Shown here: positions 18,508 to 46,168 of the stretch, piece by piece
Layout of the letters: every line of letters starts with the position of its first letter
Position numbering within the stretch: position 1 is the first letter of the stretch
Assembly (NCBI GenBank): GCA_039028615.1
Contig: JBCCHT010000006.1
Coordinates: 160,001-224,000 of the forward strand
DNA length: 64,000 nucleotides
Reading direction: 5' to 3'
DNA from: Myxococcota bacterium
GTDB taxonomy: Bacteria > Myxococcota_A > Polyangia > Nannocystales > Nannocystaceae
Program-made: the position numbers and the translations under genes
The notes under the pieces: model-generated
The model's input: only the letters and a program-made list of their open reading frames with translations
What the model was told of the DNA's origin: nothing
The model's database searches: none

Positions 18508-19089
18508 GTGATCACCCAGCTAGTCGCCGCCGCCATGATGATGTCCTTTGCACCCCACGTGCCGTGGGTCGAAACGGACGTCGCCGATCTGTCACCCCAG
18601 GGCTTGTCGCACCAGGAAGTCCTCCGCATCGACCCGGACTTCGGCAAGAACCATCACGACATCGTGGTGGACTCGTGGACGCTGGCCGACAACCCGGAGA
18701 CCATCTCCGAGGTGCGCATGTGGTGGCTGCACAGCAAAGAGAACGACGAGCGCAGCCCGTTCGGCAAAGGCGTGCGCCGCTTCGTCAACCTCGACTACGA
18801 ACGTCGGGGCCCCCGGAGCTTCGCGGTCATCCTCAAGGGCGAGCGGCGTCAGTGGTCCTTCGACGTCGAGCTCGGTGACGACGGCAAGGCCATCGCGCTC
18901 GCCGACATCACCACCCGCGGCGGCACCGTGGTCAAGCGCTGCGAGGCCGAGTCGGCCAAGCTGCTCGTGCGACGGGTGATGGGGATCCCCATGGGGCTCA
19001 AGGGGCTCGAAGTGACCTGCCGCGACAGCGCGGGCAAGAAGCATCGCGGCACCCTCCCCGAGCGCAAGATCAAGCGACGACGTCGCTGA
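18508..19089 (+). CDS. Hypothetical exported protein (weak DUF4833-like resemblance)
   Basis: Typical codon usage and signal-like N-terminus. The family resemblance is from memory only. Confidence 0.6.
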   Translation: MITQLVAAAMMMSFAPHVPWVETDVADLSPQGLSHQEVLRIDPDFGKNHHDIVVDSWTLADNPETISEVRMWWLHSKENDERSPFGKGVRRFVNLDYERRGPRSFAVILKGERRQWSFDVELGDDGKAIALADITTRGGTVVKRCEAESAKLLVRRVMGIPMGLKGLEVTCRDSAGKKHRGTLPERKIKRRRR

Positions 19090-31477: not shown

Positions 31478-34400
31478 ATGCAGTACAGGCGGCTCGCCAT
31501 GCTTCGCCGTCGCAGCGCCGTCGCCCTGCTCCTGACCCAAGCCCTCGCGTGCCAACCGGTACAGACGTCGGGCGGGGGGGCAGAACCCGCCTCCCCCGAC
31601 ACGCCCTTCGTCGCCTCACCCGGCCGTAGTGAAGGTCTGGTCTTCCCGCCCGCCTCGGAGGCCAACCCTCGCCGGAAGCTGCCTCGCGGCATCGCCAAGG
31701 CCGAAGCCGAGGCCAGCGACCGGAGCACCCGCGTCGAGTGGCCCGAGCTCGACGGCGCCGGCAAGTTCGAAATCGTCGGTCAGACGCTGTACATCCACTT
31801 CAATCGCTCGATTAAGCCGCCGCCCAAAGACGAGCCCGCTCTCACCATCGAGCCGGCCGTCGACGGCGAGATCTCGTGGTCGAATCCCTGGGTCCTGGCC
31901 TTTCGCGCCGAGGCTCCGTTTGATCCGGAGACCGAATATACGGTGGCGCTGGGCGACCTCCACGACGTCGAAGGCGAGCCGGCGGCGGAAGGGTGGACGG
32001 GCGTGTTCACGGCGGAACCGCGAGTGCACATCGCGGGCAAGGTCATCAGCTACCTGCCCGAGGCCGGCGCCCCCCAAATGGTGACGGTCCGACCGCACGA
32101 GGGCCCGCAGGTCGGCCCCGCAGTGGCGCCCGAGGTGCTCTTCGATCAGCCGGTGACCTTGGCGCAGGCCAAGACCCAGCTCGAAGGCGAGGTCGACGGC
32201 AAGCCCTGCGAAATCACCCTGGCTCACCCGGAAAAGGACCTCTTCGACGGCGCCGCCGTCGACCGGGAGCACGTGGTGATCGCCCGCCCCGCCAAGGCGC
32301 TCGATGCCGGCTCGTCGCTGGTGCTGCGCGTGAGCGAGCCCGACGGCTCCGACGATGTCGAGTTCGCGTACGAGGTCGCCGAGCCCCTCGCCTTCGAGAA
32401 GATCGAGTGCGAGGAGGACTACTGGCGCGACGACACCTGCACGTGGAAGGACCAGGTCCTGTCCACGCAAGGCGAGCGCGTCAAGGTTCGCTTCAACAAC
32501 CCCATCGGCACCAGCGACAAGGCCCTCGGGCGCAAGCTGAAGGTGAGCCCTCGGGTCGACGAGCTACGGATCCAGCGCGACCCCTGGGCCAGCGACGGCA
32601 CGGTCTGGATCTCGGGTCGCTTCAAGCCCTCGACCACCTACCGGGTCGAGCTCGGCCGGGTCAAAGACCGCTTCGGCTCGCGCAGCGCCGCGCCGCTGAA
32701 GTTCGAGGTCGACGTGGCCCCCATGGCGTCGAGCGTCTCGATGCCCGAGGGTCAGCAGGTCCTCGACGAGGCCGCCAGCCGCACCTTTGCCATCACCACC
32801 CGCAACGTGAAGGAAGCCCGCCTCGACCTGTGGGAGGTCGAGCCCAACGCACGGGCGTGGACCGAGGCGCGTCAGCGCGTCAGCGCCCGCGAGCGCCCCA
32901 TCTCCGCCCCGGACCTGAGCATCCCCGTGCGCCCTCGAAGCCGACGCGACAAGCCGGTCACCACCCGCCTCGACCTGCTCGACTCGTTGGCGCCCGGCAA
33001 GACCTACCTCGCGCGCCTCGAGCTCGGCCACGCCGCATTCGGAGCACCGCCGCCCGCCTATCCCGAGTGGGCGATGGCGGCTCGGCCCTCGACCGCTCTC
33101 ATCACCCCCCACGACGACCGAGCGCTGGCCGTGCACGTGCACGAAGGCACCGACAAGACGCTAATCCAGGTCGCGCGGCTCGGCGACGGCAGTCCGGTCC
33201 GCGGCGCGCAGGTGCTGGTCGACGGGACCCGGCAGCCGGGGATCAAGACCAACGCCGATGGTGTCGCCGTGCTGAAGCGACCGCTCGACGCGGACACCGC
33301 TCGACGCGTGCACGTGGTCGAGGTCGAGTCCGACGATCGCCGCGCCGTGCTGGCCCTGGGTGTCGGCTCGCTCGACGAGCGTGAGCTCGCCCCGGAGCTG
33401 GCCGGCACGCCCGCCCCGCTCGAGGATATCCGCGCCCTGCTGTTCAGCGACCGCGGCGTGTACCGCCCCGGCGCCACCGTGGAGCTCAAGGGCATCGTCC
33501 AGTTCCGCAAGAAGGGCCGCCTCCACCCCGCCCCCGCCATGCCGGTCGGGATGCGCATCCACTCCCCCACGGGCAAGGAGGTCTTCGCCGAAGCCAGCGT
33601 GACCTCGACCATGGGCAGCACGGTGGACAGCTTCTCGGTCCCCGCCAACGCCGAGATCGGCCGCTACCGCGTCGAGCTGGTCGCCCCGCTCCGCGCCAAC
33701 GCGGTCATCGCCCGCTACGGCATACAGGTCGCCGAGTTCGAGCCCCCGCGCTTCACCGTCGACGTGGAGACCAAGGCGGCCGAGAGCGGCAAAAAGCTCG
33801 AGGGCACCGTCAACGGCCGCTACCTGTTCGGCGCGGTGATGGAAGACGCGCCCGTGACCTGGACGCTCCGCCGCAGCCCCGCCGCCATGCCCAAGGGTCC
33901 GCTGCCGAGCAAGGGCTTCGTGTTCCGCCCCGTCCGCAGCTACTGGGAGGACGACGACACCGAGGCGTGGGTCCGCGTGGGTGAAGGCCAGCTCGACGCT
34001 CGCGGCCTGCTCGCGGTGACCCCCGCCGTGGAGCTGCCCGCCGACCAGGGCCCGCAGCGCTTCGTGCTCGAGGCCGAGGTCACCGACGAGTCTCACCGTG
34101 CCATCGCCAGCCGCAGCTCGGTGGTCATGCACCCCTCCGAGCGCTACGCCGGCATCAAGCTCGCCGAGCGCTGGCTCGACGTCGGCACTGCGATTCCCAT
34201 GGAAGCCGGCGTCGTCGACCAGAGCGGCGCCACGGTGAGCGGCGTGCCCGTGGAGCTGAGGCTCGAGCACCTCGAGTGGAAGCGCGTGCGCAAGCCCGGC
34301 CCCGGCGGCGCCGCCAGCCAGCGCTGGCACCAGGTCTCCGAAGAGGTCGCGCGCTGCACCACCAAGGGCGCCGACACCTCGGCGTGCTCGCTGGTGCCCA

Positions 34401-37216
34401 AGCGCTCGGGCACCTACCGCGTCAGCGCGTGGCTCGACGGGCGCCGAGGCGGCTCGATGCGCGTCTGGGCCTGGGGCCGCGGCTCCACCACCGCCGCGCC
34501 GTCCCCCGGGCGGCGGCTCGAGATCATCGCCGACCGCAGCGGCTACGAGCCCGGCGACACGGCCGAGCTGATGGTCCGCAACCCCTTCCCCGCGGCCACC
34601 GCGATCCTCACCGTGGAGCAGGGCGGCATCCTGCACCACGAGACGCGGCAGGTGACCGAGTCCGCGGTGCGCTTCGACGTGAAGCTGGGCAACGAGCATG
34701 CCCCGCACGCCCACGCCACCGTGACCCTGCTGCCGCGAGACGCCAAGGACGACGCCCGCGTCGACTGGAAGATCGGCGCGGTGCGGTTGCCCGTCGACCT
34801 GAGCGACAACCGGCTCGACGTCACCATCGCCAGCGACCAAGACCGCTACGCCCCCGGTGACTCGGTAGACATCGTGATCGACGTCAGCCAGTCCGGCACC
34901 GCCATCGAGGGGGCCGAGGTCGCGCTGGCCGTGGTGGACGAAGGCGTCCTGCGCATGACCAACTTCCACGCGCCCGATCCCGTCTCCGCCCTCTACCCGG
35001 GGCAGGGCCTCAACTTCCGCGTGGACGACAGCCGTCGCCTGCTCGCCGAGCAGCTCGGCCGCAGCCATGTCGCGGGTGACGGCAGCGGAGCCGGAAGCCA
35101 CAGCGTGGTCTCCACCCGCAAGAACTTCGTCAAGACCGCCCTGTGGAAGCCGCAGCTGCGGACCGACGCGGACGGCCGGGCCCACGCTCGCTTCACCTTG
35201 CCCGACAACCTCACCCGCTTCCGCATGATGGCGGTGGTGGTCGACACCGAGGGTCGCGGTGGCGTCGACGAGGACGACTTCGAGGTCCAAAAGCCCCTCA
35301 TGGCCATCCCCGCCGTGCCGCGCTTCGCCCTCATCGGCGACAAGTTCGAGGCCGCCGTGCTGGTGCACAACAACCAGGAGACGACCCAGACCGCGGCGGT
35401 GTCCGAGGGCGGGATGACCAAGACCGTCGAGATCGCCGCGGGCGGCCGGGCGCGCGTGCCCTTCGAGCTGTCCTTCTCCAAGGGCGGCACGAAGCTCCTG
35501 CACTTCACCGTCGCCGACGCCGAGGGCACGGTCCGCGACGCCGTCCAGGTGAAGGTGCCCGTCCAGGCCCCCGGCATCGACGAGCGCCCCAATCTGCACG
35601 GCACCTTCCTCGGGAGCCAGGAGGTCACCCTCCGGGTCCCCGAGAAGGTCTTCGCCGACGCGACCGGGGACGACTTCGTCACCGTCACCATGGGCGAGAA
35701 CCTGTGGCCGGAGCTGGGCACTCGCCTGCAGTACCTGCTCGGCTACCCCCACGGCTGCGTCGAGCAGACCACCTCGAGCACGCTGCCGCTGCTGGCCGCG
35801 CGCGAGATTCTGCCGCGCCTGGGCATGACCCCCTACGACGACGACGAGCTGCGCAAGATGATCGAAGCGGGCGTCGTGCGACTGTCCACCATGCGGACCA
35901 GCGCGGGCGGCCTCGCCTACTGGCCGGGCGGACACGAGCCCAACCCCTTCGGCACCGCCTACGCCACCCTGGCCATCGCCCGCGCCCAGGAGCTGGGCAT
36001 CGAGGCCCCCGAGGGCATGGTCGACGGCATGCGCGACTACATGCTGAGCATGCTCGAGAGCGACTCGTTGCCCCATGGCTACGGGGTCGAGGTCCGTGCC
36101 TCCTTGGCGCTGGCGCTCGCCGAGCTCGAGGCCCTGCCGCCCGAGCGCGCCGACTCGCTGTGGGACACCGTGCCCGCGCAAGGAGCCTTCGGCGTCGGCA
36201 CCCTGGCCCTCGCCCTGTCGACGCTGCCCGGACAAGAGGACCGCGTCGAGAGCCTGCTCGACCAGCTCGAGGCCTCGTTCGGTGACGACGGGACCCTCCG
36301 CTCCGAGCGCAAGGACGACGACTTCCTCTACTTCGGTTCCGATCGTCGCACCACGGCGCAGGCCTTGATCGCCTTGCACCGCCTGCGCCCGCAGTCGCGG
36401 GTCGTGCCCCACCTCGTGGGCAACCTCGTCCGCATGACGCCGGGCTACACCACCCAGAGCACCGCGTACTCGCTGCTCGCCCTGGCCGAGAAGATCCAGG
36501 ACGAGGACGGCACCGCGTCTCGTCAGCGGGCCCTGCTCGACGGCGAGGTGCTCACCCCCGAGGTCTCGGGCGCCATGGCGCTGGGCCCCAACATCCGTCG
36601 CTATCGGATCCCGCTGTCGAAGCTGCGCGGGCGCTCGATGACCCTGACCCTGCAGAGCGAGTCCACCCGTGCCCAGGCCTTCATGGTCTCGGCCCGCTGG
36701 CGCCGAGCCGGCGCGGGTACGGAGACGCTCGCCGAGACCACCAGCGAGCACGGCCCCGACCTGTACCGCGTGTACACCGATGCCAAGGGGCGCTCCATCG
36801 ACCCCACCGCCATCGAGCCGGGACAGGTCCTGCGGGTGGTGTTGCTCGCCCGCATGCCGCGGGACCTGCCGAGTGAGCGACGCGGCTACCTGGCCCTGAC
36901 CGATCGGATCCCCGCCGGATTCGAAGCCATGCAACCCGACCTGTGGACGGTGGCCACCGTGCCCGAGCTCGACGACTCGCACCCGCTGTACGACCACCTG
37001 CGGTGGCGCGGAGGCTCAGCGGACCACCTCGAGCTGCGGGACGACCGAGCCCACTTCTACTTCGACCGTGTCTGGGGACAGTGGGCGCATGCCACCTACC
37101 TCATCCGCGCGACCACGCCGGGCATCTTCGCCACGCCGCCGGCCATGGCGGAGCTGATGTACGAGCCGGACAGCGCTGGCTACACCGACGCTCGCAACTT
37201 CACCGTCGTCCAGTAA
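31478..37216 (+). CDS. Bacterial alpha-2-macroglobulin (lipoprotein)
   Basis: Lipobox ALAC. SDRGVYRPG, LAVVDEGVL, LPDNLTRFR, thioester motif YPHGCVEQT, DRIPAGFE, ATTPG...AELMY. Confidence 0.95.
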   Translation: MQYRRLAMLRRRSAVALLLTQALACQPVQTSGGGAEPASPDTPFVASPGRSEGLVFPPASEANPRRKLPRGIAKAEAEASDRSTRVEWPELDGAGKFEIVGQTLYIHFNRSIKPPPKDEPALTIEPAVDGEISWSNPWVLAFRAEAPFDPETEYTVALGDLHDVEGEPAAEGWTGVFTAEPRVHIAGKVISYLPEAGAPQMVTVRPHEGPQVGPAVAPEVLFDQPVTLAQAKTQLEGEVDGKPCEITLAHPEKDLFDGAAVDREHVVIARPAKALDAGSSLVLRVSEPDGSDDVEFAYEVAEPLAFEKIECEEDYWRDDTCTWKDQVLSTQGERVKVRFNNPIGTSDKALGRKLKVSPRVDELRIQRDPWASDGTVWISGRFKPSTTYRVELGRVKDRFGSRSAAPLKFEVDVAPMASSVSMPEGQQVLDEAASRTFAITTRNVKEARLDLWEVEPNARAWTEARQRVSARERPISAPDLSIPVRPRSRRDKPVTTRLDLLDSLAPGKTYLARLELGHAAFGAPPPAYPEWAMAARPSTALITPHDDRALAVHVHEGTDKTLIQVARLGDGSPVRGAQVLVDGTRQPGIKTNADGVAVLKRPLDADTARRVHVVEVESDDRRAVLALGVGSLDERELAPELAGTPAPLEDIRALLFSDRGVYRPGATVELKGIVQFRKKGRLHPAPAMPVGMRIHSPTGKEVFAEASVTSTMGSTVDSFSVPANAEIGRYRVELVAPLRANAVIARYGIQVAEFEPPRFTVDVETKAAESGKKLEGTVNGRYLFGAVMEDAPVTWTLRRSPAAMPKGPLPSKGFVFRPVRSYWEDDDTEAWVRVGEGQLDARGLLAVTPAVELPADQGPQRFVLEAEVTDESHRAIASRSSVVMHPSERYAGIKLAERWLDVGTAIPMEAGVVDQSGATVSGVPVELRLEHLEWKRVRKPGPGGAASQRWHQVSEEVARCTTKGADTSACSLVPKRSGTYRVSAWLDGRRGGSMRVWAWGRGSTTAAPSPGRRLEIIADRSGYEPGDTAELMVRNPFPAATAILTVEQGGILHHETRQVTESAVRFDVKLGNEHAPHAHATVTLLPRDAKDDARVDWKIGAVRLPVDLSDNRLDVTIASDQDRYAPGDSVDIVIDVSQSGTAIEGAEVALAVVDEGVLRMTNFHAPDPVSALYPGQGLNFRVDDSRRLLAEQLGRSHVAGDGSGAGSHSVVSTRKNFVKTALWKPQLRTDADGRAHARFTLPDNLTRFRMMAVVVDTEGRGGVDEDDFEVQKPLMAIPAVPRFALIGDKFEAAVLVHNNQETTQTAAVSEGGMTKTVEIAAGGRARVPFELSFSKGGTKLLHFTVADAEGTVRDAVQVKVPVQAPGIDERPNLHGTFLGSQEVTLRVPEKVFADATGDDFVTVTMGENLWPELGTRLQYLLGYPHGCVEQTTSSTLPLLAAREILPRLGMTPYDDDELRKMIEAGVVRLSTMRTSAGGLAYWPGGHEPNPFGTAYATLAIARAQELGIEAPEGMVDGMRDYMLSMLESDSLPHGYGVEVRASLALALAELEALPPERADSLWDTVPAQGAFGVGTLALALSTLPGQEDRVESLLDQLEASFGDDGTLRSERKDDDFLYFGSDRRTTAQALIALHRLRPQSRVVPHLVGNLVRMTPGYTTQSTAYSLLALAEKIQDEDGTASRQRALLDGEVLTPEVSGAMALGPNIRRYRIPLSKLRGRSMTLTLQSESTRAQAFMVSARWRRAGAGTETLAETTSEHGPDLYRVYTDAKGRSIDPTAIEPGQVLRVVLLARMPRDLPSERRGYLALTDRIPAGFEAMQPDLWTVATVPELDDSHPLYDHLRWRGGSADHLELRDDRAHFYFDRVWGQWAHATYLIRATTPGIFATPPAMAELMYEPDSAGYTDARNFTVVQ

Positions 37217-37248: not shown

Positions 37249-39696
37249 ATGGACCGCCGATCCCCGACCCCCCCGAAGCGCACTCGACCTCGCCGCCGCC
37301 GTCGGATCGTCGTCGTCGCGCTCGGCCTGCTGGTGACCGTGGCGTGGATCTCCTGGGCGGCCATGTGGTCGTGGCTCCGCAGCGAGGTCGACCGCCCGCG
37401 CGAGTCGCTGAACGACGACTGGTACTCCGGGCACCGGGTCCTCGACCGCGAGGGCCGGCTGCTCCGCGAGCTGCCCGGTGAAGAGGGTCGACGCGGGCAG
37501 CCGCTCGCGCTCGACGAGGTCGGACCGCGACTCATCGCCGCCACCGTGGTCAGCGAGGACGCGCGCTTCTTCGAGCACGAGGGCGTCGACGGCGGGGCCA
37601 TCGTGCGGGCGGTGGGACAGAACCTTCGGCATCGGCGCGTCGTCTCGGGCGCGAGCACCATCACCCAGCAGCTCGTCAAACTCCTGGATACCCGCGGTCA
37701 GCCCGGCGTCCGCGATCCGTGGGTCAAGCTGCGCGAGGCGGCCCGGGCTGCCAACCTCGACGAGGCGCTCGCCAAAGAAGAAATCCTCGAAGCCTATCTC
37801 AATCGCCTTCCCTACGGCCATGGGCTCGTGGGGCCCGAGGCTGCCGCACGAGGCTACTTCGGCGTGGCCGCCCGCGACCTGTCGTGGAGTCAGGCTGCGT
37901 TCCTCGCCGTGCTGCCGCGCGCCCCCTCGTTCCTCGATCCCTATCGTCACCACGACCGCGTCACCTTGCGGCAGCACGCCCTGCTGCACGCTCTGCACAA
38001 CGCCGGTGAAATCGATGAGCCGCAGCTGCACCGTGCTCTGGCGGAGGCCGTCAAACCGCGTGAGCTCGAGCGTCCTTTTTCCGCTCCGCACCTGGTGGAG
38101 ACCCTGCGCCAGCGCGGTCAGCTGAGCTCGGGCACCACCACGCGCACGACCCTCGACCTGCCGTTGCAGCAGGACGTCGAGGGGCTCGTTCGGACCCACA
38201 TGGCCCGCATGGTCGAGCACGGCGCGGGCGATGCCGCCGTGCTGGTCGTCGACAACGCCACCGCCGAAGTGCTCGCCTACGTCGGCTCAGCCGACTTCCA
38301 TGATCCCACCATCGCCGGCCAGGTCGACATGGTCGTCGCCCCGCGCCAGCCCGGCTCCACGCTCAAGCCCTTCGTCTACGCGCTGGCCTTCGAGCAGGGC
38401 CACTCGCCCGTCGAGCTTTTGGCCGACGTCCCCACCACCTTCCGCGAGGGGCCGGGGCACGTCTACGCCCCCCGCAACTACCACGGCCAATTCACCGGTC
38501 CCGTCTCCGCTCGCGTGGCCTTGGCGACCAGCCTCAACGTGCCCGCCGTGCGCCTCGCCGCCGATCTACCCCACGGCGAGCTGCTCGAGACGCTCCAGAG
38601 TCTGGGTCTGCACAGCCTGACCGAGCCCGCCGAGCACTACGGCCTCGCATTGGCCTTGGGCAGCGGCGAAGTCGGCCTCCGCGAGCTGACCGAGGCCTAT
38701 GTCGCGCTGGCGCATGGCGGTGAACATCGACCCCTGCGCACCATCCTCGACGCCTCGGAAGGCCCCCGCACGCAGGTCTTCGAGCCCTACGCCGCCGCGG
38801 CCATCACCGAGGCGCTGTCGGACCCGATGGCCCGCATTCGCCTGTTGCCCGCCGGCCATCGCCCCTTCGACATCGGCTTTCCCGTCGCGCTCAAGACCGG
38901 CACCAGCTCGGGCTACCGCGACGCCTGGACGGTCGGCTTCACCCACGAGCGTACCGTGGCGGTGTGGATCGGCAACGCCGATGCCACGGCCATGAACGAG
39001 GTCACGGGAGCGGGCGGAGCGGGTCCTTTGTTCGCCGACGTCATGCGGCGCGCCATGGAGACCGTGCCCACTCGCGAGCCGCTGTGGGACTCTTCGCTGC
39101 TGACGACGGTGGAGGTCTGCCCGTTCTCCGGCCAGCGCCCGGGGCCCGCCTGTCCGCATGCGGTTCAGCGCAAGCTTGCGCATGAGCACATTCCCCATGA
39201 GGCGTGCACGATGCATGTGCACGCGACGCCTCGCCCCTCGACCTCGCGGCCTTTCACCTGCGACCCCGAAGGGCATGCCTCCATCGCGGTGCTGCCCGAG
39301 GAGTACAACGGCTGGCTCGACGAGCGGCCGGTCGGGGCGCCGGGCGAGGATGCCAACGGCACGCCGTGGCTGGCTCGTGCGCGGGTTCCGGGCTGCGCCG
39401 AGCAGACCGATCGTCCGACGATGGCGATCGTGGAGCCCGTGAATGGGGCGGTGGTGTGGTCGGGGCGCGATGGTGATGTGGTCGAGTTGCGGGCGGAGCT
39501 TCAGGGGACGACTCGGGAGCCGGACACGGTTGTTTCGGAGGTCGAGTTTGTGGCCGATGGTGAGGTGGTGGCTCGGAGTGCTTGGCCGTATCGGGCGTTG
39601 GTGGAGTTGGGGCCTGGGGATCACCGGGTGGTGGCGCGGCCTCGTCGATCGCGGTCGGGCATGCCTACGCAGGGCGCTCGCTTTAGTGTTCGGTGA
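37249..39696 (+). CDS. pbpC: Penicillin-binding protein 1C (transglycosylase/transpeptidase)
   Basis: SEDARFFEHEGVD, SGASTITQQL, RQPGSTLKP (SxxK), SLN, KTGTS. Directly downstream of alpha-2-macroglobulin. GGAG precedes ATG 37249. Confidence 0.93.
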   Translation: MDRRSPTPPKRTRPRRRRRIVVVALGLLVTVAWISWAAMWSWLRSEVDRPRESLNDDWYSGHRVLDREGRLLRELPGEEGRRGQPLALDEVGPRLIAATVVSEDARFFEHEGVDGGAIVRAVGQNLRHRRVVSGASTITQQLVKLLDTRGQPGVRDPWVKLREAARAANLDEALAKEEILEAYLNRLPYGHGLVGPEAAARGYFGVAARDLSWSQAAFLAVLPRAPSFLDPYRHHDRVTLRQHALLHALHNAGEIDEPQLHRALAEAVKPRELERPFSAPHLVETLRQRGQLSSGTTTRTTLDLPLQQDVEGLVRTHMARMVEHGAGDAAVLVVDNATAEVLAYVGSADFHDPTIAGQVDMVVAPRQPGSTLKPFVYALAFEQGHSPVELLADVPTTFREGPGHVYAPRNYHGQFTGPVSARVALATSLNVPAVRLAADLPHGELLETLQSLGLHSLTEPAEHYGLALALGSGEVGLRELTEAYVALAHGGEHRPLRTILDASEGPRTQVFEPYAAAAITEALSDPMARIRLLPAGHRPFDIGFPVALKTGTSSGYRDAWTVGFTHERTVAVWIGNADATAMNEVTGAGGAGPLFADVMRRAMETVPTREPLWDSSLLTTVEVCPFSGQRPGPACPHAVQRKLAHEHIPHEACTMHVHATPRPSTSRPFTCDPEGHASIAVLPEEYNGWLDERPVGAPGEDANGTPWLARARVPGCAEQTDRPTMAIVEPVNGAVVWSGRDGDVVELRAELQGTTREPDTVVSEVEFVADGEVVARSAWPYRALVELGPGDHRVVARPRRSRSGMPTQGARFSVR

Positions 39697-39707
39697 TCGA
39701 GTTTAGT

Positions 39708-40465
39708 CCGCGTCATCTCGCGTGCGTACATCCGGTAGGCTCTGCTCTATCGATGGCTGGGAGTGCTTCGAGGCCGCCTGCACGTGTTTCGAGCGAAGGG
39801 CTCGCCTGTTGACGGCTGGATCCCTCCCCGGACGTGCTCGTCGGTCGTTGCACCCGGCTGTTTCGCGACCACATTGGGGAACGACTCCGCGCGACCGGGC
39901 CCCCTCCATCCTACGCGGCTTCGCTTCAGCCCTCCCCCCGCGTCGTCTCCCGTCCGTACAGCGATCAGTTCCTGCTCTATCGATTGCTAGGAATGCTCCG
40001 CATTGGCTTGCGAATGTTCGAGCGAAGGGCTCGCCTGTTGACGGCTGGACCCCTCCCCGGACGTGCTCGTCGGTCGTTGCACCCGGGTGCTTCGCGGCGG
40101 TACTGGGGAACGACTCCGCGCGACCGGGCCCCCTCCATCCTACGCGGCTTCGCTTCAGCCCTCCCCCTGCAGCACCTCCCGTGCGTGCACTCAGCAGTTC
40201 CTGCTCTATCGATGGCCAGGAGTGCTTCGCATTGGCTCGCGGAGTGTTCGAGCGAAGGGCTCGCCTGTTGACGGCTGGACCCCTCCCCGGACGTGCTCGT
40301 CGGTCGTTGCACTCGGCTGCTTCGCGGCCACTTGGGGAACGACTCCGCGCGACCGGGCCCCCTCGATCCTACGCGGCTTCGCTTCAGCCCTCCCCCCGCG
40401 TCGTCTCCCGTGCGAGCACACAACGAACCCAGCTCTGTCGAAGGCCAGGAGCCCTTCGCGTTGGC
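39708..40465 (+). repeat. Tandem array of a ~230-bp non-coding structured repeat (about 3.3 units)
   Basis: Anchor CTGCTCTATCGAT at 39742, 39972, 40201, with a degenerate copy at 40430. Core CGAAGGGCTCGCCTGTTGACGGCTGGA at 39794, 40023, 40253. Period 229-230 bp. Confidence 0.95.
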
Positions 40466-40686
40466 GCCGGCGGTCGGCAGAGGCTGTGGCTTGCAGCCAC
40501 TCTCCAGCTGTTCGTAGCCCGTTCTGCAGCCTGGCGGTTTGGAACGTTTGGGCGTTCCGTCTACGGCTACTGCGGCGAAAGTGATTTCCCTGGCATCAGG
40601 CCGAGTCACGTTGATCCCGGAGTTTTGGCCAGTGTTTCCTCGGCCGCATGGTGGGTCGTATCCTGTGGCCGCAGAGTTGTCTCTCG

Positions 40687-41169
40687 ATGAGTTCGTCGAC
40701 CTCCAAGCTCTACCTCGTGCCACCTCTGGAGCCCGGGAGTTTCGACTGGCAGATCTGGTTGACCGAAGACGAGGCGAACGATCCCTACGAGAAATCCGCT
40801 CATGTGAACGACGGCACCCGTTATCTCGTCGTTCTCGAGGGCATGGCACTGGCCGAGTGCACGGCCCACCACCTCTCGGAGGTGTACTTGTGGAGCGATG
40901 GTTCGGGGGACCACGACAACTACGTAGTCCTTCGCATCGAGGTCGTGCTGGACTCCGAGCGCTGGCAGACGCTGCCGTGGGGCCACCGTTCCCCGGGCGA
41001 GCTGTTCTACGGGTGGAGTCACTACGAGGACGAAATGATCCGCGACGACCCCGAAGGCATCGGTTGGAAAATGGCGAGCTGGGAAGAAGTCGAGCAAGCA
41101 CTCGCGGCCGGAGAATGCAGGCTGGAGTACTTCGACGGCCACCGACACCCGCCAAAGCCCCAAGCGTGA
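40687..41169 (+). CDS. Orphan hypothetical protein (160 aa, acidic, Trp-rich) between the inverted repeat arrays
   Basis: Protein-like composition (MSSSTSKLYLVPPLEPGSFDWQIWL...), unlike the Arg/Pro-rich shadow ORFs. Start could be 40648 or 40687. Confidence 0.7.
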   Translation: MSSSTSKLYLVPPLEPGSFDWQIWLTEDEANDPYEKSAHVNDGTRYLVVLEGMALAECTAHHLSEVYLWSDGSGDHDNYVVLRIEVVLDSERWQTLPWGHRSPGELFYGWSHYEDEMIRDDPEGIGWKMASWEEVEQALAAGECRLEYFDGHRHPPKPQA

Positions 41170-41265
41170 ACATCAGCTGGACAGGACCACATCGTTCCTC
41201 ATGGTAAGAACTCCCCTGTCACAACTCGTTACACAGACCTTCTCGCCCAGCCCCAAACTACGCTT

Positions 41266-41745
41266 CACCTCGAAGCACTCCCCCCCCCATCGATAGAGCG
41301 GGGCCTGCTGTATGCGCGCACGGGAGATGATGCGCGGGGAGGGCTGAAGCGAAGCCGCGTAGGATGGAGGGGGCCCGGTCGCGCGGAGTCGTTCCCCAAT
41401 GTGGTCGCGAAGCAGCCGGGTATAACTACCGACGAGCACGTCCGGGGAGGGATCCAGCCGTCAACAGGCGAGCCCTTCGTTCGAACACTCGGTAAGCCAC
41501 CTCGAAGCACTCCCCCCCATCGATAGAGCAGGGCCCACTGGCGGTACGCACGGGAGACGACGCACGGGGAGGGCTGAAGCGAAGCCGCGTAGGATGGAGG
41601 GGGCCCGGTCGCGCGGAGTCGTTCCCCAAAGCGGTCGCGAAGCACCCCGCTGCAACTACCGACGAGCACGTCCGGGGAGGGATCCAGCCGTCAACAGGCG
41701 AGCCCTTCGCTCGAACATTCCGCCAGCCCCCTCCAAGCACTCCCG
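41266..41745 (-). repeat. Inverted array of the same ~230-bp repeat (about 2.1 units)
   Basis: ATCGATAGAGC at 41289 and 41519; GGCGAGCCCTTCG ending at 41479 and 41709. These are reverse complements of the 39.7-40.4 kb unit, period 230. Confidence 0.95.
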
Positions 41746-41813
41746 ACCAACGCCAAAGCCCCCTCGGCAGCTCCCAAGGTGCGCCGTCCCCCCAGCCTCC
41801 CGCCGAGACGAAT

Positions 41814-43031
41814 TCACCCCACCCGCGGCGAATACCGAGCAAAGTACTGCCGCATGAGCCACCGCCGAAACCAAACATTGATCGCCGGAAAGTCGATCTT
41901 CAAAGCCCCATAGACCACCAACGACCGCCCCCCCAAACTAACCCCATACGCAAACCGAGGCCGCAACACATGAGGCCGCAACACCGGCACCTCCCCCCGA
42001 TTCTTCGGCGCATGCTCAGCCAAGATCGCAACATTGCGCGCCACCACCTTCGCCTGCCAAAGGCACTCGATGGCCCGCTGCATCGTCGGCCAGACCCCAT
42101 CTCCGCCCACCACTCGCACCGCATCCCCGCACGCGAAGATCTCCGGATGCGTAGGCTCCGGCGTAGGAAAGCACTGCAACGTCGGCCCCACCGCCAGCCA
42201 ACCATCGTCGGTCCGCGGCAGCCCCAAGTGCTCGAGAATCGGCGCCGGCCGAATCCCCCCCGCCCAGAAGGTCAACGCCGCATCGAGCGATTCCACCGTC
42301 TCCTCGTGACGCAGTTGCACCGACGACGGCCCGGCTTCGACCAGTCGCGTCTCCAAGCGCAGATCGACCCCCTGCCCCACCAACGCCGAGGCCGCCTTCC
42401 GCCCCACCCCGGCCGCGAGCTCGGGCAGTAGCCGGGCCCCAGCACTCACCAACGTGACCGCCGGCGCCCGCCACCCCTCGGGTCGCCGCCGCCGCAGCAA
42501 GGCCAGCTCGCCCGCCAGCTCCACGCCAGAGATGCCACCGCCCACCACCACCATCCGCGGCTCGGCCGATGCATCCCCCTCGGACCCCAGCGTCTCCGCC
42601 AGTCGCGGCCGCGCCTCGTCGATCTCCGCCTCGAACTTGTGCCCGAGCATGTGCTCGGCCCCGGGCATCCCCGGCGGGGGCGTGACCACGGAACCCAAGG
42701 CCACGACCACGAAGCGCGCCGCGATCCGTCGCCCCGACCCCAGCTCGACGACCTTGCGCTCGGGATCGAAGGACACGACCTCGTCGCAGACGAAGTCGGT
42801 GCCCGGCAGCGAGCGCACGAAGTCCTCGGTGGGCAGGATGCTCTGCTCGTCCGTGAGCACGCCGCACAGCCGCTCGTGCACCAAGGGGATGTAGCCATGA
42901 CTGCGCTGCCGATCGACGACGGTGATCTTCAGCGGTTTGGACAGGCGGCGCTGGATCTGGAGCACGACCTCGATGCCGGCGAAGCTCGCCCCCAGCACCA
43001 ATAAGTCGGTGCGCTCAGGTGCCGAAGACAT
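41814..43031 (-). CDS. NAD(P)/FAD-dependent oxidoreductase (NDH-2/Pyr_redox_2-like)
   Basis: LVLGASFAG, VVALGS, VVGGGISGVELAGEL, FWAGG, IFACGD. Start at ATG 43031. Confidence 0.88.
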   Translation of the reverse strand: MSSAPERTDLLVLGASFAGIEVVLQIQRRLSKPLKITVVDRQRSHGYIPLVHERLCGVLTDEQSILPTEDFVRSLPGTDFVCDEVVSFDPERKVVELGSGRRIAARFVVVALGSVVTPPPGMPGAEHMLGHKFEAEIDEARPRLAETLGSEGDASAEPRMVVVGGGISGVELAGELALLRRRRPEGWRAPAVTLVSAGARLLPELAAGVGRKAASALVGQGVDLRLETRLVEAGPSSVQLRHEETVESLDAALTFWAGGIRPAPILEHLGLPRTDDGWLAVGPTLQCFPTPEPTHPEIFACGDAVRVVGGDGVWPTMQRAIECLWQAKVVARNVAILAEHAPKNRGEVPVLRPHVLRPRFAYGVSLGGRSLVVYGALKIDFPAINVWFRRWLMRQYFARYSPRVG

Positions 43032-43848
43032 GCACCTTGTCCCGGACCGAGGCGGGGAAGCGCTCTTGGACGATGCGCTCGGCATCGGCCTTGGTATGGC
43101 GCGCGCTCCGGTGCACCAACACCAGGGCCTCTCCCTCGAACTGCTCGGCCCGCTCGATCATCTCTTCGACGTGGGTATGGCCCCACTGCCGCACCTGCTC
43201 GGGAGTGCGACGCTCGTCCCAGCCGGTCACCTCGTGCACCAGCACCCGGCACCGCCGCAAGTCGGGCTCCCGATCGAACAGCTCGATCTGCGTGTCACCG
43301 GTGACGCAGATCAGCGGCTCGATGTGCGTCTCGGTGATCGTCTCGCCGCGACGACGACGGGCGCCCAGCTCTTCGCCGGGCAGGCCCTTGAGCGACTCCA
43401 GCAAGCGCTCGCTCCGTCGCTCGAACATCCACGCCAGTGATGGCACACGATGCACCGAACGCAAGCAGCGGGCGTGTCCCTGGCGTAGCGGCACGGTGCT
43501 GCCCGGCGCGTGCCCGTGCAGGTCGACCTCGATGTCGAAGTCCTCGATCTCTTCCCAGGCGGCGAAGATGCGCTGCAGCGGGTCGAGGATTTCCTCGGGG
43601 ACGTGCACGGCCGGCGCCCCGCCCCGCACCATGTGCCGCTGCGAGACCATGTACGGCAGCCCGCCCAGGTGATCCTGGTGCCCGTGCGAGACGAGGATGG
43701 TGTCGAAGCGCATCTGGCCCGGCACCATGGGCGCGGCATCGAACATCAGGCCCAGCTCGGGGACCATCAGGCACGTGCGCACGCCGCCCAGGGCCACCCC
43801 GCGGAGGGTCAGTCCGGCGACCTTCAGCTCATCGTGACCGAGTCTCAT
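43015..43848 (-). CDS. Metallo-beta-lactamase-fold hydrolase, short tRNase Z-like
   Basis: SHGHQDH (HxHxDH), HRVPS, TGDT, HEVT, GHTH, LVHRSARH. Start at ATG 43848. Confidence 0.8.
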   Translation of the reverse strand: MRLGHDELKVAGLTLRGVALGGVRTCLMVPELGLMFDAAPMVPGQMRFDTILVSHGHQDHLGGLPYMVSQRHMVRGGAPAVHVPEEILDPLQRIFAAWEEIEDFDIEVDLHGHAPGSTVPLRQGHARCLRSVHRVPSLAWMFERRSERLLESLKGLPGEELGARRRRGETITETHIEPLICVTGDTQIELFDREPDLRRCRVLVHEVTGWDERRTPEQVRQWGHTHVEEMIERAEQFEGEALVLVHRSARHTKADAERIVQERFPASVRDKVHVFGT

Positions 43849-43900
43849 GCGCGGTAGGCCCCGGCTCGAGCGCCCGACTTGCGGGCGCTCGTCGTCGCCA

Positions 43901-46168
43901 TCAGCTGACGAAGTTGCGGTTCGGGGTCCACAGGACCTGGGCCGGAGCGGCCGCGGGCGCAGCTGCGGCCTGGCCACTGCTGACCCGAGTCTCGAGCACC
44001 GCCTTGGCCGCGACCAGCACCTTGGCGGGCGACACGACGATCTGGTCCTCGAGCACGACGCTCTGGGGCACGCCCGGCACCGCGTCCTGACCCAGCACGC
44101 GCGTGGCCACGTGACGCTCACCGAAGTGCTCGTGCACCGACCCCTGGAGCTCCCGGCCGATGCTCGAGAACACGCGGTCCTCGTGCACGACCAGCAACCG
44201 GCCAGTCCGGCCGACGCTCTCGTAGATGGTCTCGAGGTCGGGCGGCACGATGGTCCGCAGGTCGATGAGGTCGACGGAGACGCCGTCGGCGGCGAGGGTC
44301 TTGACCGCCTCCTGGCAGAACAAGGTGCAGCGACCCCAGGTCACGATGGTGAGATCGTCGCCGCGCTGCAGGTGCGCCGCCTTGCCCAGCGGGACGCGGA
44401 AGTCCTCGGGCAGCGGGGGCGCATGACCCTCGAAGGCGATGGCGCGCTTGAGCTTGCGGACCTCTTCGGGATCGGTGGGCTCGCCTGGGAACGCGTCGCC
44501 GAGCGTCATGCGGTACAGGCCCTTCGACTCGAAGAAGAGCACGGGTCCGCTGTACTCGGCCGCCGTTCGCAAAAGGCCGTACATGTCGCGCGAGGTCGAG
44601 GGCGCCACGATGGTCAGGCCCGGGATCGCCCCGTAAAAGCCCTCCATGCACATCGAGTGGTACACGGCGCCGCCGTGCAGCGGCTCGACGGGCAGGCGCA
44701 CGATGACGTTGGCCCGCACGCTCGAGTCCGAGGTCCACAGCAGGTTCCCCATGTGCACCAGCCAGTGCAGGGTATTGAGGCTGTAGTCCGAGAACTGGAT
44801 CTCCGGCAGCGCGGTCGAGCCCTCGTGCAGGGCGAAGCCCAGCGCCGCGCCCAGGATGAAGGGCTCGTTGATCGGTGCGTCGCGGACCTGGTTGGGGAAC
44901 GACTCGTGCAGACCCTTGGTGGCCTGCATGACGCCGCCCTTGGCCCCCACGTCCTGGCCGTAGATCCAGGTCATGGGGTTGTCGCGCAGGATGGCCCCCA
45001 TGGCCGCCCGCACCGCGCCGTTGATCGAGATGATGGTGCGGCGACCGGTGGCCGGCGCCTCCTCGACCTCGGGGAAGGGATCGCGAATGTTGTCGTAGAT
45101 CCGGTCGTAGCTGGGGTGCGGCTCCGACTCGGCCTGCTCCATCGTGTGCACGATGTGGGCGTCGGCGTGGGCTCCGAGGCGGCCGAGCTCGTGGCGGGCG
45201 TAGTAGTCCTTGGACTCGCCGTCCTTGCGCCGAATGATGTCGTCCGGCGCCAGGATCCCGCGATCGACCAGGGCCTGACCGAAGTCGATGAGCGGGTCGT
45301 ACTCGTGGAACTTGAAGGTGACGTCGGCGGCCGAGCTGTGGTCATTGAGCCGCGAGAGGTTGCGAACCCACATCAGGGCCGGCTTCTGCTCGTTGCGGCA
45401 GTACAGCGCGGCGTCGCGGGTGGTCTCGTAGACGTCGAGGAAGTCGTTGCCGTCGCAGGTGAAGTACTTGAAGCCGAACGCCTTGGCGTAGGACTCGAAG
45501 TCTCGGATCCCGCGGCCGTCCTCGGGCTTGACGCTGATGGCGACGTTGTTGTCGGTGACGGTCAGCAGCCAGGGCAGCTGGAGGATGGACGCCCCGGTCA
45601 TGCCCTCGTGGACATCGCCCTCGGCGCAGGTTCCGTCACCGATGATGCACTGGCACAGCGCGTCGGTATGGCCCTTGTGCACCAAGCCCTGCGTGTAGCC
45701 GATGGACTTGGAGACCTGCATGCCCAGCGCCGACTGGATCGGCAGGGTGTTGTGGGCCAGGTCGTTGAAGTGGGCCGTCATCTGGCGGCCGCCGCTCCAC
45801 GGGTCGGTGGCGCGGGACAGCTGCTGCCGCATGTGGTTGAGGTGGAAGTCCTCGTGCCCCTGCAGCCGGCTCCACAGCGCGAGCAATGAAGCGGAACGGT
45901 AGTGACCGGCGATGGCGAAGGCCTCGGGGTTGGCGACCTCGTGCAGCGCCAGCGCGGTCGCGGTGCCGTGGATCTCCTCGCCTGGGCCCCAGATGGCGAA
46001 CTTCACCTTGCCCTTGAGGCACTCCTGCACCACGCGCTCCACATGGAGGCGCGCCAAACACGCTTCGTGGTACGCGAGCTGCAATCGCTCGGTGGTCAGC
46101 TCCGGAAATTCATCCAGGCGAGCCAGGTCATACTTGAGCGTCCGAACCGGCGAGGATCCTTCGGGCAT
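43901..46168 (-). CDS. Fused 2-oxoacid dehydrogenase E1 alpha+beta (TPP-dependent; branched-chain type likely)
   Basis: GDGTCAEG...DNN TPP motif, HSSA, GQDVGAKGGV, DAPINE, PEIQFSDY, DLRTIVP. Confidence 0.9.
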   Translation of the reverse strand: MPEGSSPVRTLKYDLARLDEFPELTTERLQLAYHEACLARLHVERVVQECLKGKVKFAIWGPGEEIHGTATALALHEVANPEAFAIAGHYRSASLLALWSRLQGHEDFHLNHMRQQLSRATDPWSGGRQMTAHFNDLAHNTLPIQSALGMQVSKSIGYTQGLVHKGHTDALCQCIIGDGTCAEGDVHEGMTGASILQLPWLLTVTDNNVAISVKPEDGRGIRDFESYAKAFGFKYFTCDGNDFLDVYETTRDAALYCRNEQKPALMWVRNLSRLNDHSSAADVTFKFHEYDPLIDFGQALVDRGILAPDDIIRRKDGESKDYYARHELGRLGAHADAHIVHTMEQAESEPHPSYDRIYDNIRDPFPEVEEAPATGRRTIISINGAVRAAMGAILRDNPMTWIYGQDVGAKGGVMQATKGLHESFPNQVRDAPINEPFILGAALGFALHEGSTALPEIQFSDYSLNTLHWLVHMGNLLWTSDSSVRANVIVRLPVEPLHGGAVYHSMCMEGFYGAIPGLTIVAPSTSRDMYGLLRTAAEYSGPVLFFESKGLYRMTLGDAFPGEPTDPEEVRKLKRAIAFEGHAPPLPEDFRVPLGKAAHLQRGDDLTIVTWGRCTLFCQEAVKTLAADGVSVDLIDLRTIVPPDLETIYESVGRTGRLLVVHEDRVFSSIGRELQGSVHEHFGERHVATRVLGQDAVPGVPQSVVLEDQIVVSPAKVLVAAKAVLETRVSSGQAAAAPAAAPAQVLWTPNRNFVS

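Follow-up and report, generated by a model that had tools for sequence, protein, structure and literature searches.

A repeated hairpin element flanked by strand-oriented silent-site skew in a Myxococcota genome

Local strand asymmetry in bacteria has been described as GRINS, the closest known system to the locus studied here as far as the available portions of PMC8256042 go. In those portions, GRINS show correlated GC and TA skews on the kilobase scale. They occur in high-GC bacteria, are strongest at third codon positions and recode working genes. They consist of duplicated coding regions (>80% identity) and have internal sign changes. Their authors propose C>T and A>G changes through error-prone replication and describe the mechanism as unknown.

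Asymmetry between replichores has the same direction in the genome studied here, where G exceeds C and A, and T exceeds A and C. In the part of bioRxiv 10.1101/346874 available to us, A and C strand biases are 2.4 and 2.3 when mismatch repair is lost, and the C bias alone is significant in the wild type. A Pol I footprint 3' of the ColE1 origin is similar, in that synthesis in one direction marks the newly made strand with C>T and A>G for more than 1.3 kb (PMC3167613, in part). On that strand the error-prone enzyme left 140 C>T against 29 G>A, and 32 A>G against 9 T>C, along at least 1.3 kb (same portions of PMC3167613). Finally, REP/BIME repeats with their TnpA-REP (RAYT) are irregular hairpins found in large numbers between genes, as inverted doublets or in tandem, chiefly at the 3' ends of genes (PMC3333891, PMC8266576 and PMC6006769, in the portions available). 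In the TnpA-REP model a nick primes the host polymerase and units are amplified (PMC3333891, in part). The portions available of these three sources describe no skew of the flanks.

We analysed a window of 64,000 nucleotides (positions 160,001 to 224,000 of contig JBCCHT010000006.1, assembly GCA_039028615.1). Below, G000 is the genome of the window and C6 its contig. Compared with GRINS, the host gene that is skewed here is single-copy, a non-coding hairpin next to it sets the sign, and decay was measured on both sides. The skew of positions 41501-42500 exceeds the GRINS threshold (mean absolute value >0.15 over >500 bp), with GC -0.215 and AT +0.420 in 41501-42000 and GC -0.259 and AT +0.181 in 42001-42500. 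The GRINS duplication (>80% DNA identity) is lacking, and the only other match in G000 is a paralog with 29% amino acid identity. Unlike replichore asymmetry, the skew is about 8 times larger in log-odds, spans about 2.5 kb, is independent of the replichore and lies away from origin and terminus. The Pol I footprint belongs to a plasmid origin and an engineered error-prone polymerase (PMC3167613, in part), whereas the zone here, which we call a halo, is known from composition and has an upstream arm as well. Compared with REP/BIME, the hairpins here measure 120-165 nt instead of 20-40, and no RAYT is flanked by the main family (family A). A link to REP/BIME exists in that both RAYT-like genes of G000 sit in halos. 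In the literature searched, which excluded most subscription journals and supplements, we found no published description of an element-polarised flank skew.

Table 1. Features of the locus (window positions)
Feature	Position	Strand	Remarks
pbpC, penicillin-binding protein 1C, host gene	37249..39696	+	TIGR02073 556 bits, cut-off 494
Left halo arm, pbpC 3' end, plus strand G/T-rich	39100..39696	+	
Left array, three 229-bp units, cores 39788-39935, 40016-40164 and 40246-40393	39708..40465	+	
160-aa ORF (173 aa if started at ATG 40648), flanked by the two inverted arrays	40687..41169	+	without skew of its own
Right array, two 230-bp units, family A cores 41338-41486 and 41568-41716	41282..41759	-	
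FAD-dependent pyridine nucleotide-disulphide oxidoreductase (NDH-2/SQR superfamily), host gene	41814..43031	-	Pfam Pyr_redox_2 E 9.4e-35
Right halo arm, minus strand depleted of C and A and enriched in G and T at silent sites	41817..42700	-	peak 41817-42270; derived vs orthologs

The last 81 sense codons of the oxidoreductase (minus strand, 41817-42059) have third bases G52, T21, C8 and A0, and TTG makes up 6 of the 7 Leu codons. The hand counts of the initial annotation were exact on recount. It had also seen nearly the same proportions at the end of pbpC on the other strand, and these are A1, C9, G48 and T23 on the plus strand. Four-fold C/G counts of the oxidoreductase in 50-codon steps from the stop are 2/21, 4/20, 2/25, 8/25, 11/23, 10/20, 14/15 and 15/12. 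The G-richness is therefore gone by about 42.7 kb, close to the 42.6 kb estimated by eye. The name "NDH-2-like" was kept at the level of the superfamily only (Pyr_redox_2 E 9e-35), because in an NCBIfam search none of its families scored above cut-off for this protein. The right array has its upstream side toward the oxidoreductase stop. The ORF between the arrays has no Pfam or NCBIfam match, and its best Atlas feature score is 0.89, which we treat as a lead only. Immediately 5' of pbpC there is a very large lipoprotein gene (31499-37216, plus strand); the two are presumably an alpha-2-macroglobulin/pbpC pair.

Such gene ends are rare in this genome. We called 9320 genes in G000 with a hexamer model built for the purpose, and compared the 7170 of at least 600 nt that have a downstream neighbour. 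Their last 81 codons have on average A4.4, C40.3, G30.5 and T5.7 at third positions. Only 16 of the 7170 reach C3<=8 at the 3' end and 36 reach C3<=15; near the 5' end none of the 7170 reaches C3<=15. The binomial tail for C3<=8 is 2e-14, with codons treated as independent. A contig of one public sequencing run (X1) spans 41691-44522 with 0 differences, an agreement that is not independent, since X1 is probably the source sample. It is the one DNA run found to contain the site, with no RNA run listed, and its long contigs are identical to the assembly, so it yields no polymorphism.

The initial annotation placed the cause locally, unless the site was the replication origin or terminus, or repeat-free orthologs were equally C-poor. 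Neither is the case. Contig C6 keeps one replichore sign in 6/6 blocks of 50 kb, and its cumulative skew curve has no turn at the site. We rejected an origin or terminus, as there is no chromosome-scale sign switch of skew here. Orthologs of the oxidoreductase (68-71% identical) were found in 5/5 congeners, none with a repeat 3' of the stop. Their last 81 codons have C3 of 32, 41, 35, 32 and 18, against 8 here, and T3 of 8, 2, 7, 4 and 5. The ortholog with C3 of 18 is G-rich over the entire gene. In the relative G001, the stops of the oxidoreductase and pbpC adjoin, with nothing inserted between them. We also compared two-fold sites at which the orthologs have a consensus C, because four-fold sites are near saturation and single substitution steps are unreadable there. 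T is found in 14/17 halo sites (last 81 codons of the oxidoreductase and pbpC) vs 9/69 far sites (more than 270 codons in). As judged from these orthologs, the skew at this site is a derived state.

The comparison was reciprocal for G004, another carrier of the element. Genes adjoining its own copies are more G+T-rich than the element-free G000 orthologs in 6/7 cases, with one tie. Pooling four carriers, element-side genes are more G+T-rich than their orthologs in 11/16. The G001 loci show no overall halo (C329/G280 vs ortholog C317/G334), the one G087 locus has no net halo, and in G002 the halo is weak. The only outward-facing pair seen (locus L168, G004 C16:62000-68000) has a strong halo on one side and almost none on the other.

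The repeats form a family of elements. Family A has a core of about 150 nt, with 98 matches in 68 arrays of G000. In this genome, 21 pairs of arrays lying within 8 kb face inward and none faces outward. The hairpin is long and irregular, and 8 of 15 consensus pairs show compensatory change among 27 sequences. This covariation score beats 500/500 shuffles and all slid controls, although the shuffle does not control for kinship. The fold of a single unit has no greater stability than that of shuffled sequences (z 0.84), and it is covariation only that supports the hairpin stem. The fold is more stable on the element strand only in subfamily A2 (21/23 as DNA); the corresponding counts are 39/65 in A1, 6/19 in family B and 4/12 in family C. 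B (20 arrays) and C (12 arrays) are sister families that share a stem-foot motif with each other and with A, and many of their copies bear halos.

The distribution is narrow. A covariance model finds family A in 9/73 genomes of the taxonomic family. A class-wide sample of 151 genomes has the element in 2, both of the same family, and family A is absent outside the family in that sample. Family B occurs in 4/73 genomes and family C was found in G000 alone. Other matches are one metagenome locus and two plasmid matches at chance level. A promoter/terminator scan gave nothing exceeding shuffles. Short tandem duplications occur in 16/45 element-bearing intergenic stretches vs 34/361 element-free ones (at least 600 bp).

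Several inverted pairs enclose other sequence. At C18:62486-63873 of G000 the cargo is a 330-aa ORF of low GC3, which by eye resembles a protein of macro-type plus SEFIR/TIR-type. Elsewhere the enclosed sequence is a lipoprotein-like ORF or a non-coding linker. On C42, 3' of the gene ending at 19049, an internally deleted family A copy has kept its ends and lost the long stem; it adjoins a C-poor end.

We tabulated what lies next to the 36 most C-poor gene ends. Known repeats adjoin 28 of them: family A (21, plus the deleted copy), B (1), C (2) and the short repeats of RAYT-like genes (3). The other eight have no recognised repeat (C11:231549, C18:193245, C20:157272, C25:51588, C35:115430, C44:61089, C83:5994 and C6:206336) and may represent lost elements or further families. 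The end at C6:206336 belongs to a low-complexity Pro/Gly/Gln gene. These eight ends, and the fact that only 35 of the 142 skewed regions in G000 adjoin a family A array and most do not, would suit a scenario in which elements insert into pre-skewed sites and orient by them. Against it, the element-free orthologs are unskewed here, and reciprocally for G004. The skew also peaks at the element and decays both ways. We consider this reversed order of cause hardly credible.

The polarity of the bias was determined in the four possible gene geometries. With a background of 0.43, four-fold G/(G+C) on the coding strand is 0.72 for upstream genes on the element strand and 0.19 for upstream genes on the opposite strand. 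Downstream, it is 0.22 on the opposite strand and 0.70 on the same strand. In the same order, 33/36, 6/6, 18/20 and 10/10 loci go in the expected direction; 3 of the 36 upstream genes on the element strand have reverse polarity. The bias follows the strand of the hairpin, not transcription, in all four geometries. Array orientation has no link to the replichore (33 vs 35). The local cause proposed by the initial annotation is supported. An effect on the coding strand or 3' end was not, since the orientation of the hairpin sets the strand, and in genes that approach it from its far side the coding strand is depleted of G. We rejected such an effect as sole cause, as the polarity in the four geometries follows the element.

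A related explanation is transcription-associated mutation. The non-template strand would be exposed in R-loops of genes that end at the hairpin, and read-through would extend the effect downstream. It agrees with the fact that 76/89 upstream neighbours run toward the element on its strand. However, 6/6 upstream genes that point away show the polarity of the element (for example, G2/C46 and G4/C50 on the coding strand). Likewise, in 18/20 cases a downstream gene that converges on the element is depleted of G on its own non-template strand, and control gene ends show no effect. Transcription is therefore a very improbable source of the halo.

The extent was measured on 16 isolated arrays, which lack a partner for 7 kb around and are followed by 5 kb of contig. 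Upstream, the excess over local background is +0.42 (0-300 bp), +0.35 (300-600) and +0.11 (600-800). Downstream, it is +0.27, +0.28, +0.24, +0.19, +0.13 and +0.06 out to 2 kb. At 200 control gene ends the excess is about 0. The halo thus reaches from about -0.6 to +2 kb around the element, a zone of about 2.5 kb in which skew is maximal at the element and falls off on both sides. The mirror image in the window is two elements facing each other. In some inverted pairs (C16, C31 and C53) one copy dominates both sides.

A weak lobe of opposite sign lies 0.8-2.5 kb upstream in 74/88 arrays. Tails of partner arrays can cause it in this set, so truly isolated arrays were also scored (-1.2 to -2.5 kb); there it is found in 10/13, with a mean of -0.05 (p 0.02). 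The lobe yields an origin-like sign switch about 0.9 kb upstream of arrays.

To describe the base spectrum, we fitted 9429 halo codons. The weights relative to G are A 0.38, C 0.27 and T 1.01. The C/G ratio is 0.21-0.28 of background for all four 3' neighbours; there is no strong effect of the neighbouring base, and we rejected a deaminase-type sequence context. Gly codons shift more (ratio about 0.10). Leu CTN codons shift less, because of TTG.

The spectrum was then compared with the replication asymmetry of the same genome. Between leading and lagging strands of G000, four-fold G/C changes x1.37 and T/A x1.31, and two-fold T/C x1.30 and G/A x1.31. The same four contrasts in the halo (same vs opposite strand) are x10.9, x7.9, x8.0 and x9.7. 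In log terms this is 7.6-8.5 times the leading/lagging values across the four contrasts. The halo, an amino-to-keto shift on the element strand, reproduces the leading/lagging signature of its own genome with log-odds about 8 times as large. Its spectrum matches the published polymerase-error spectra.

An equilibrium model in which only C>T and A>G are raised gives about A.035, C.17-.19, G.67-.71 and T.09-.10, provided that C and G seldom interchange directly. The four-fold composition is also reproduced by selection against C and A, so composition cannot separate mutation from such selection. The element could have a function that needs about 2 kb of DNA with one strand rich in G/T (or the other rich in C/A), and selection at silent sites would supply it. 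This is in line with a core that is conserved and covarying (8/15 pairs, 0/500 shuffles as high) and with changes between copies that lack C asymmetry. A Rho-like form, with C favoured over G on the opposite strand and A and T neutral, is rejected: the constraint A=T costs 108 log-likelihood units and G=T costs none (sites treated as independent). Besides, the four ratios mirror the replication asymmetry, which selection need not do. To our knowledge, there is no keto-preferring factor. We regard selection as clearly unlikely.

The hairpin could also act passively. The hairpin or a bound protein would stall forks, or keep a gap or R-loop open, and the element strand would remain single-stranded and deaminate with no extra synthesis. 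This predicts the same polarity as re-synthesis of the strand. It accounts for the steep upstream arm, the lack of dinucleotide context and the fit of the equilibrium model. However, A drops almost like C, also at two-fold sites, where NNR codons have A in 49/796 against a background of 0.147. A loss of C cannot cause this, so it counts against passive exposure. The deamination of adenine is far slower than that of cytosine. Nor does exposure predict the longer downstream arm. Moreover, wild-type E. coli is without significant A bias in the available part of bioRxiv 10.1101/346874. Passive exposure is, in our view, unlikely.

Recent changes give a mixed picture. In 9 tandem repeats of the flanks, polarised by majority, forward changes (C>T, C>G, A>G) number 22 and reverse ones 17 (p 0.0009). 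When neighbouring copies of the element are compared, changes from C are not in excess, with C>T 30 against G>A 39 and C>G 21 against G>C 28. An excess is seen there for A>G alone, with 25 vs T>C 31 on fewer sites (p 0.009). The copy-to-copy test covered 11/12 clusters, and three-copy polarisation is weak in it and in the flank-repeat test. The conserved hairpin core has no strand asymmetry.

Our preferred reading, with a probability of roughly 0.55, is that the element triggers repeated local strand-displacement re-synthesis of its own strand. The 3' end of a nick or R-loop near or upstream of the hairpin would prime synthesis 5' to 3' through it. The element strand would be copied again and again from the opposite strand. 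G.dT and T.dG errors that stay uncorrected in the new copy would give C>T and A>G, and the displaced strand, through deamination, would add to both changes in the same sense. At four-fold sites, a GC-favouring turnover would then turn T to G. As a first guess, the initiating enzyme may be a nickase of the HUH/Y1 type. Synthesis primed in this direction would be expected to make the downstream arm longer. Since MutL is present, an escape from repair must be assumed.

Re-synthesis would account for the polarity in the four geometries, the null control ends, the independence from the replichore, the base weights and the match to the leading/lagging signature. We also count for it the derived state, the tandem duplications, the changes in flank repeats and the position of both RAYT-like genes in halos. 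Against it, we count the copies without C excess, the symmetric core, the halos that are absent or weak in G001, G087 and G002, and the cognate enzyme that was not found. The steeper upstream arm is not explained by polymerase direction alone, and the element strand folds more stably in subfamily A2 only.

We searched G000 and its relatives for an enzyme. G000 has two RAYT-like Y1/HUH genes, at C13:40464-41393 and C8:231422-232315, which are 67% identical and score below the NCBIfam cut-off. Each lies between its own short inverted tagged hairpins, unrelated to family A, with mirror G/T halos in which the tagged strand is the G/T-rich one. This RAYT type was not found in the element carriers G001, G002, G004 and G035, and there are no Y1/RAYT matches in the carriers G001 (72% complete) and G004 (88% complete). 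No family A hairpin stands beside the RAYT-like genes of 22 loci (best E 0.06). Among RAYT-like loci of relatives, 7/23 have upstream G+T>0.52, and most are without a clear halo.

Family A shares with REP/BIME its many intergenic copies of an imperfect hairpin, arranged as inverted doublets or in tandem. No cognate Y1 transposase flanked by family A repeats was found in these loci and carriers. The foot of the family A stem has GTAG or GCAG, carried by the complement of the G/T-rich strand; against a 20-40 bp palindrome, the hairpin is longer by a factor of 3-4. Families B and C are without the GTAG/GCAG tag. The genomes G087 and G088 (loci L191-L200) have 18 and 16 weak matches to the RAYT model, and several of these genes have a short motif on their flanks, repeated without a change of orientation; the skew there is mild. 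In G002 (C63:24753-28103) an IS200-type Y1 gene lies between two inverted gene copies of 70% identity; its left flank is G-rich and the right one C-rich.

Other mobile elements were considered. Ends of IS1182 type were not supported, with no significant match to the A, B or C profiles among the loci fetched (14 + 30). An IS1182-type remnant on C20 of G000 shares the short end motif alone, without hairpin or halo. In inward pairs the shared motif is outermost; yet upstream bases pair beyond the stem of the same copy (columns 23-30 with 152-159). By eye, there is no target duplication at this site. The IS91 profile PF04986 gave 0 matches in a search whose control also gave no match. Retron msDNA-like repeats were rejected, as the nearest element match is 37 kb from the sole reverse transcriptase (C16:159887). 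That retron-type locus (C16:157000-163500) has its own upstream inverted repeats and nearby ORFs, unrelated to the hairpin family.

Integron attC sites have paired terminal core boxes and stand in direct orientation after cassettes. Here, some copies have a box ending in AAC with no GTT partner in the fold, and copies are inverted about their cargo, so attC was rejected. Of the tyrosine recombinase matches, 0/10 adjoin an array. A known Rfam RNA was also rejected, with 0 covariance-model matches at E<=1 in 39600-41900. A family search of 14 proteins, including the cargo of G002 pairs, gave kinases, an IS66 fragment and others unmatched, with no shared enzyme.

A wider form of the re-synthesis reading can be drawn. 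The hairpins would be dispersed chromosomal mini-origins. Short and mostly one-directional rounds of synthesis would escape mismatch repair, leave an origin-like switch and recode the host genes. We hold this idea tentatively and find it doubtful. Such a process could be the missing source of GRINS.

The asymmetry of bacterial strands is regarded as something that replication imposes on the chromosome as a whole. In this genome, a small non-coding element bears an oriented private copy of it, which rewrites the silent codon positions of ordinary genes over about 2.5 kb. Near such repeats, predictions based on codon usage, of horizontal transfer and of origins may mislead. If the asymmetry is mutational, it marks an unrecognised local process of DNA synthesis. 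In that case, the element would be a 150-nt trigger in cis, usable to test the origin of GRINS-type skews.
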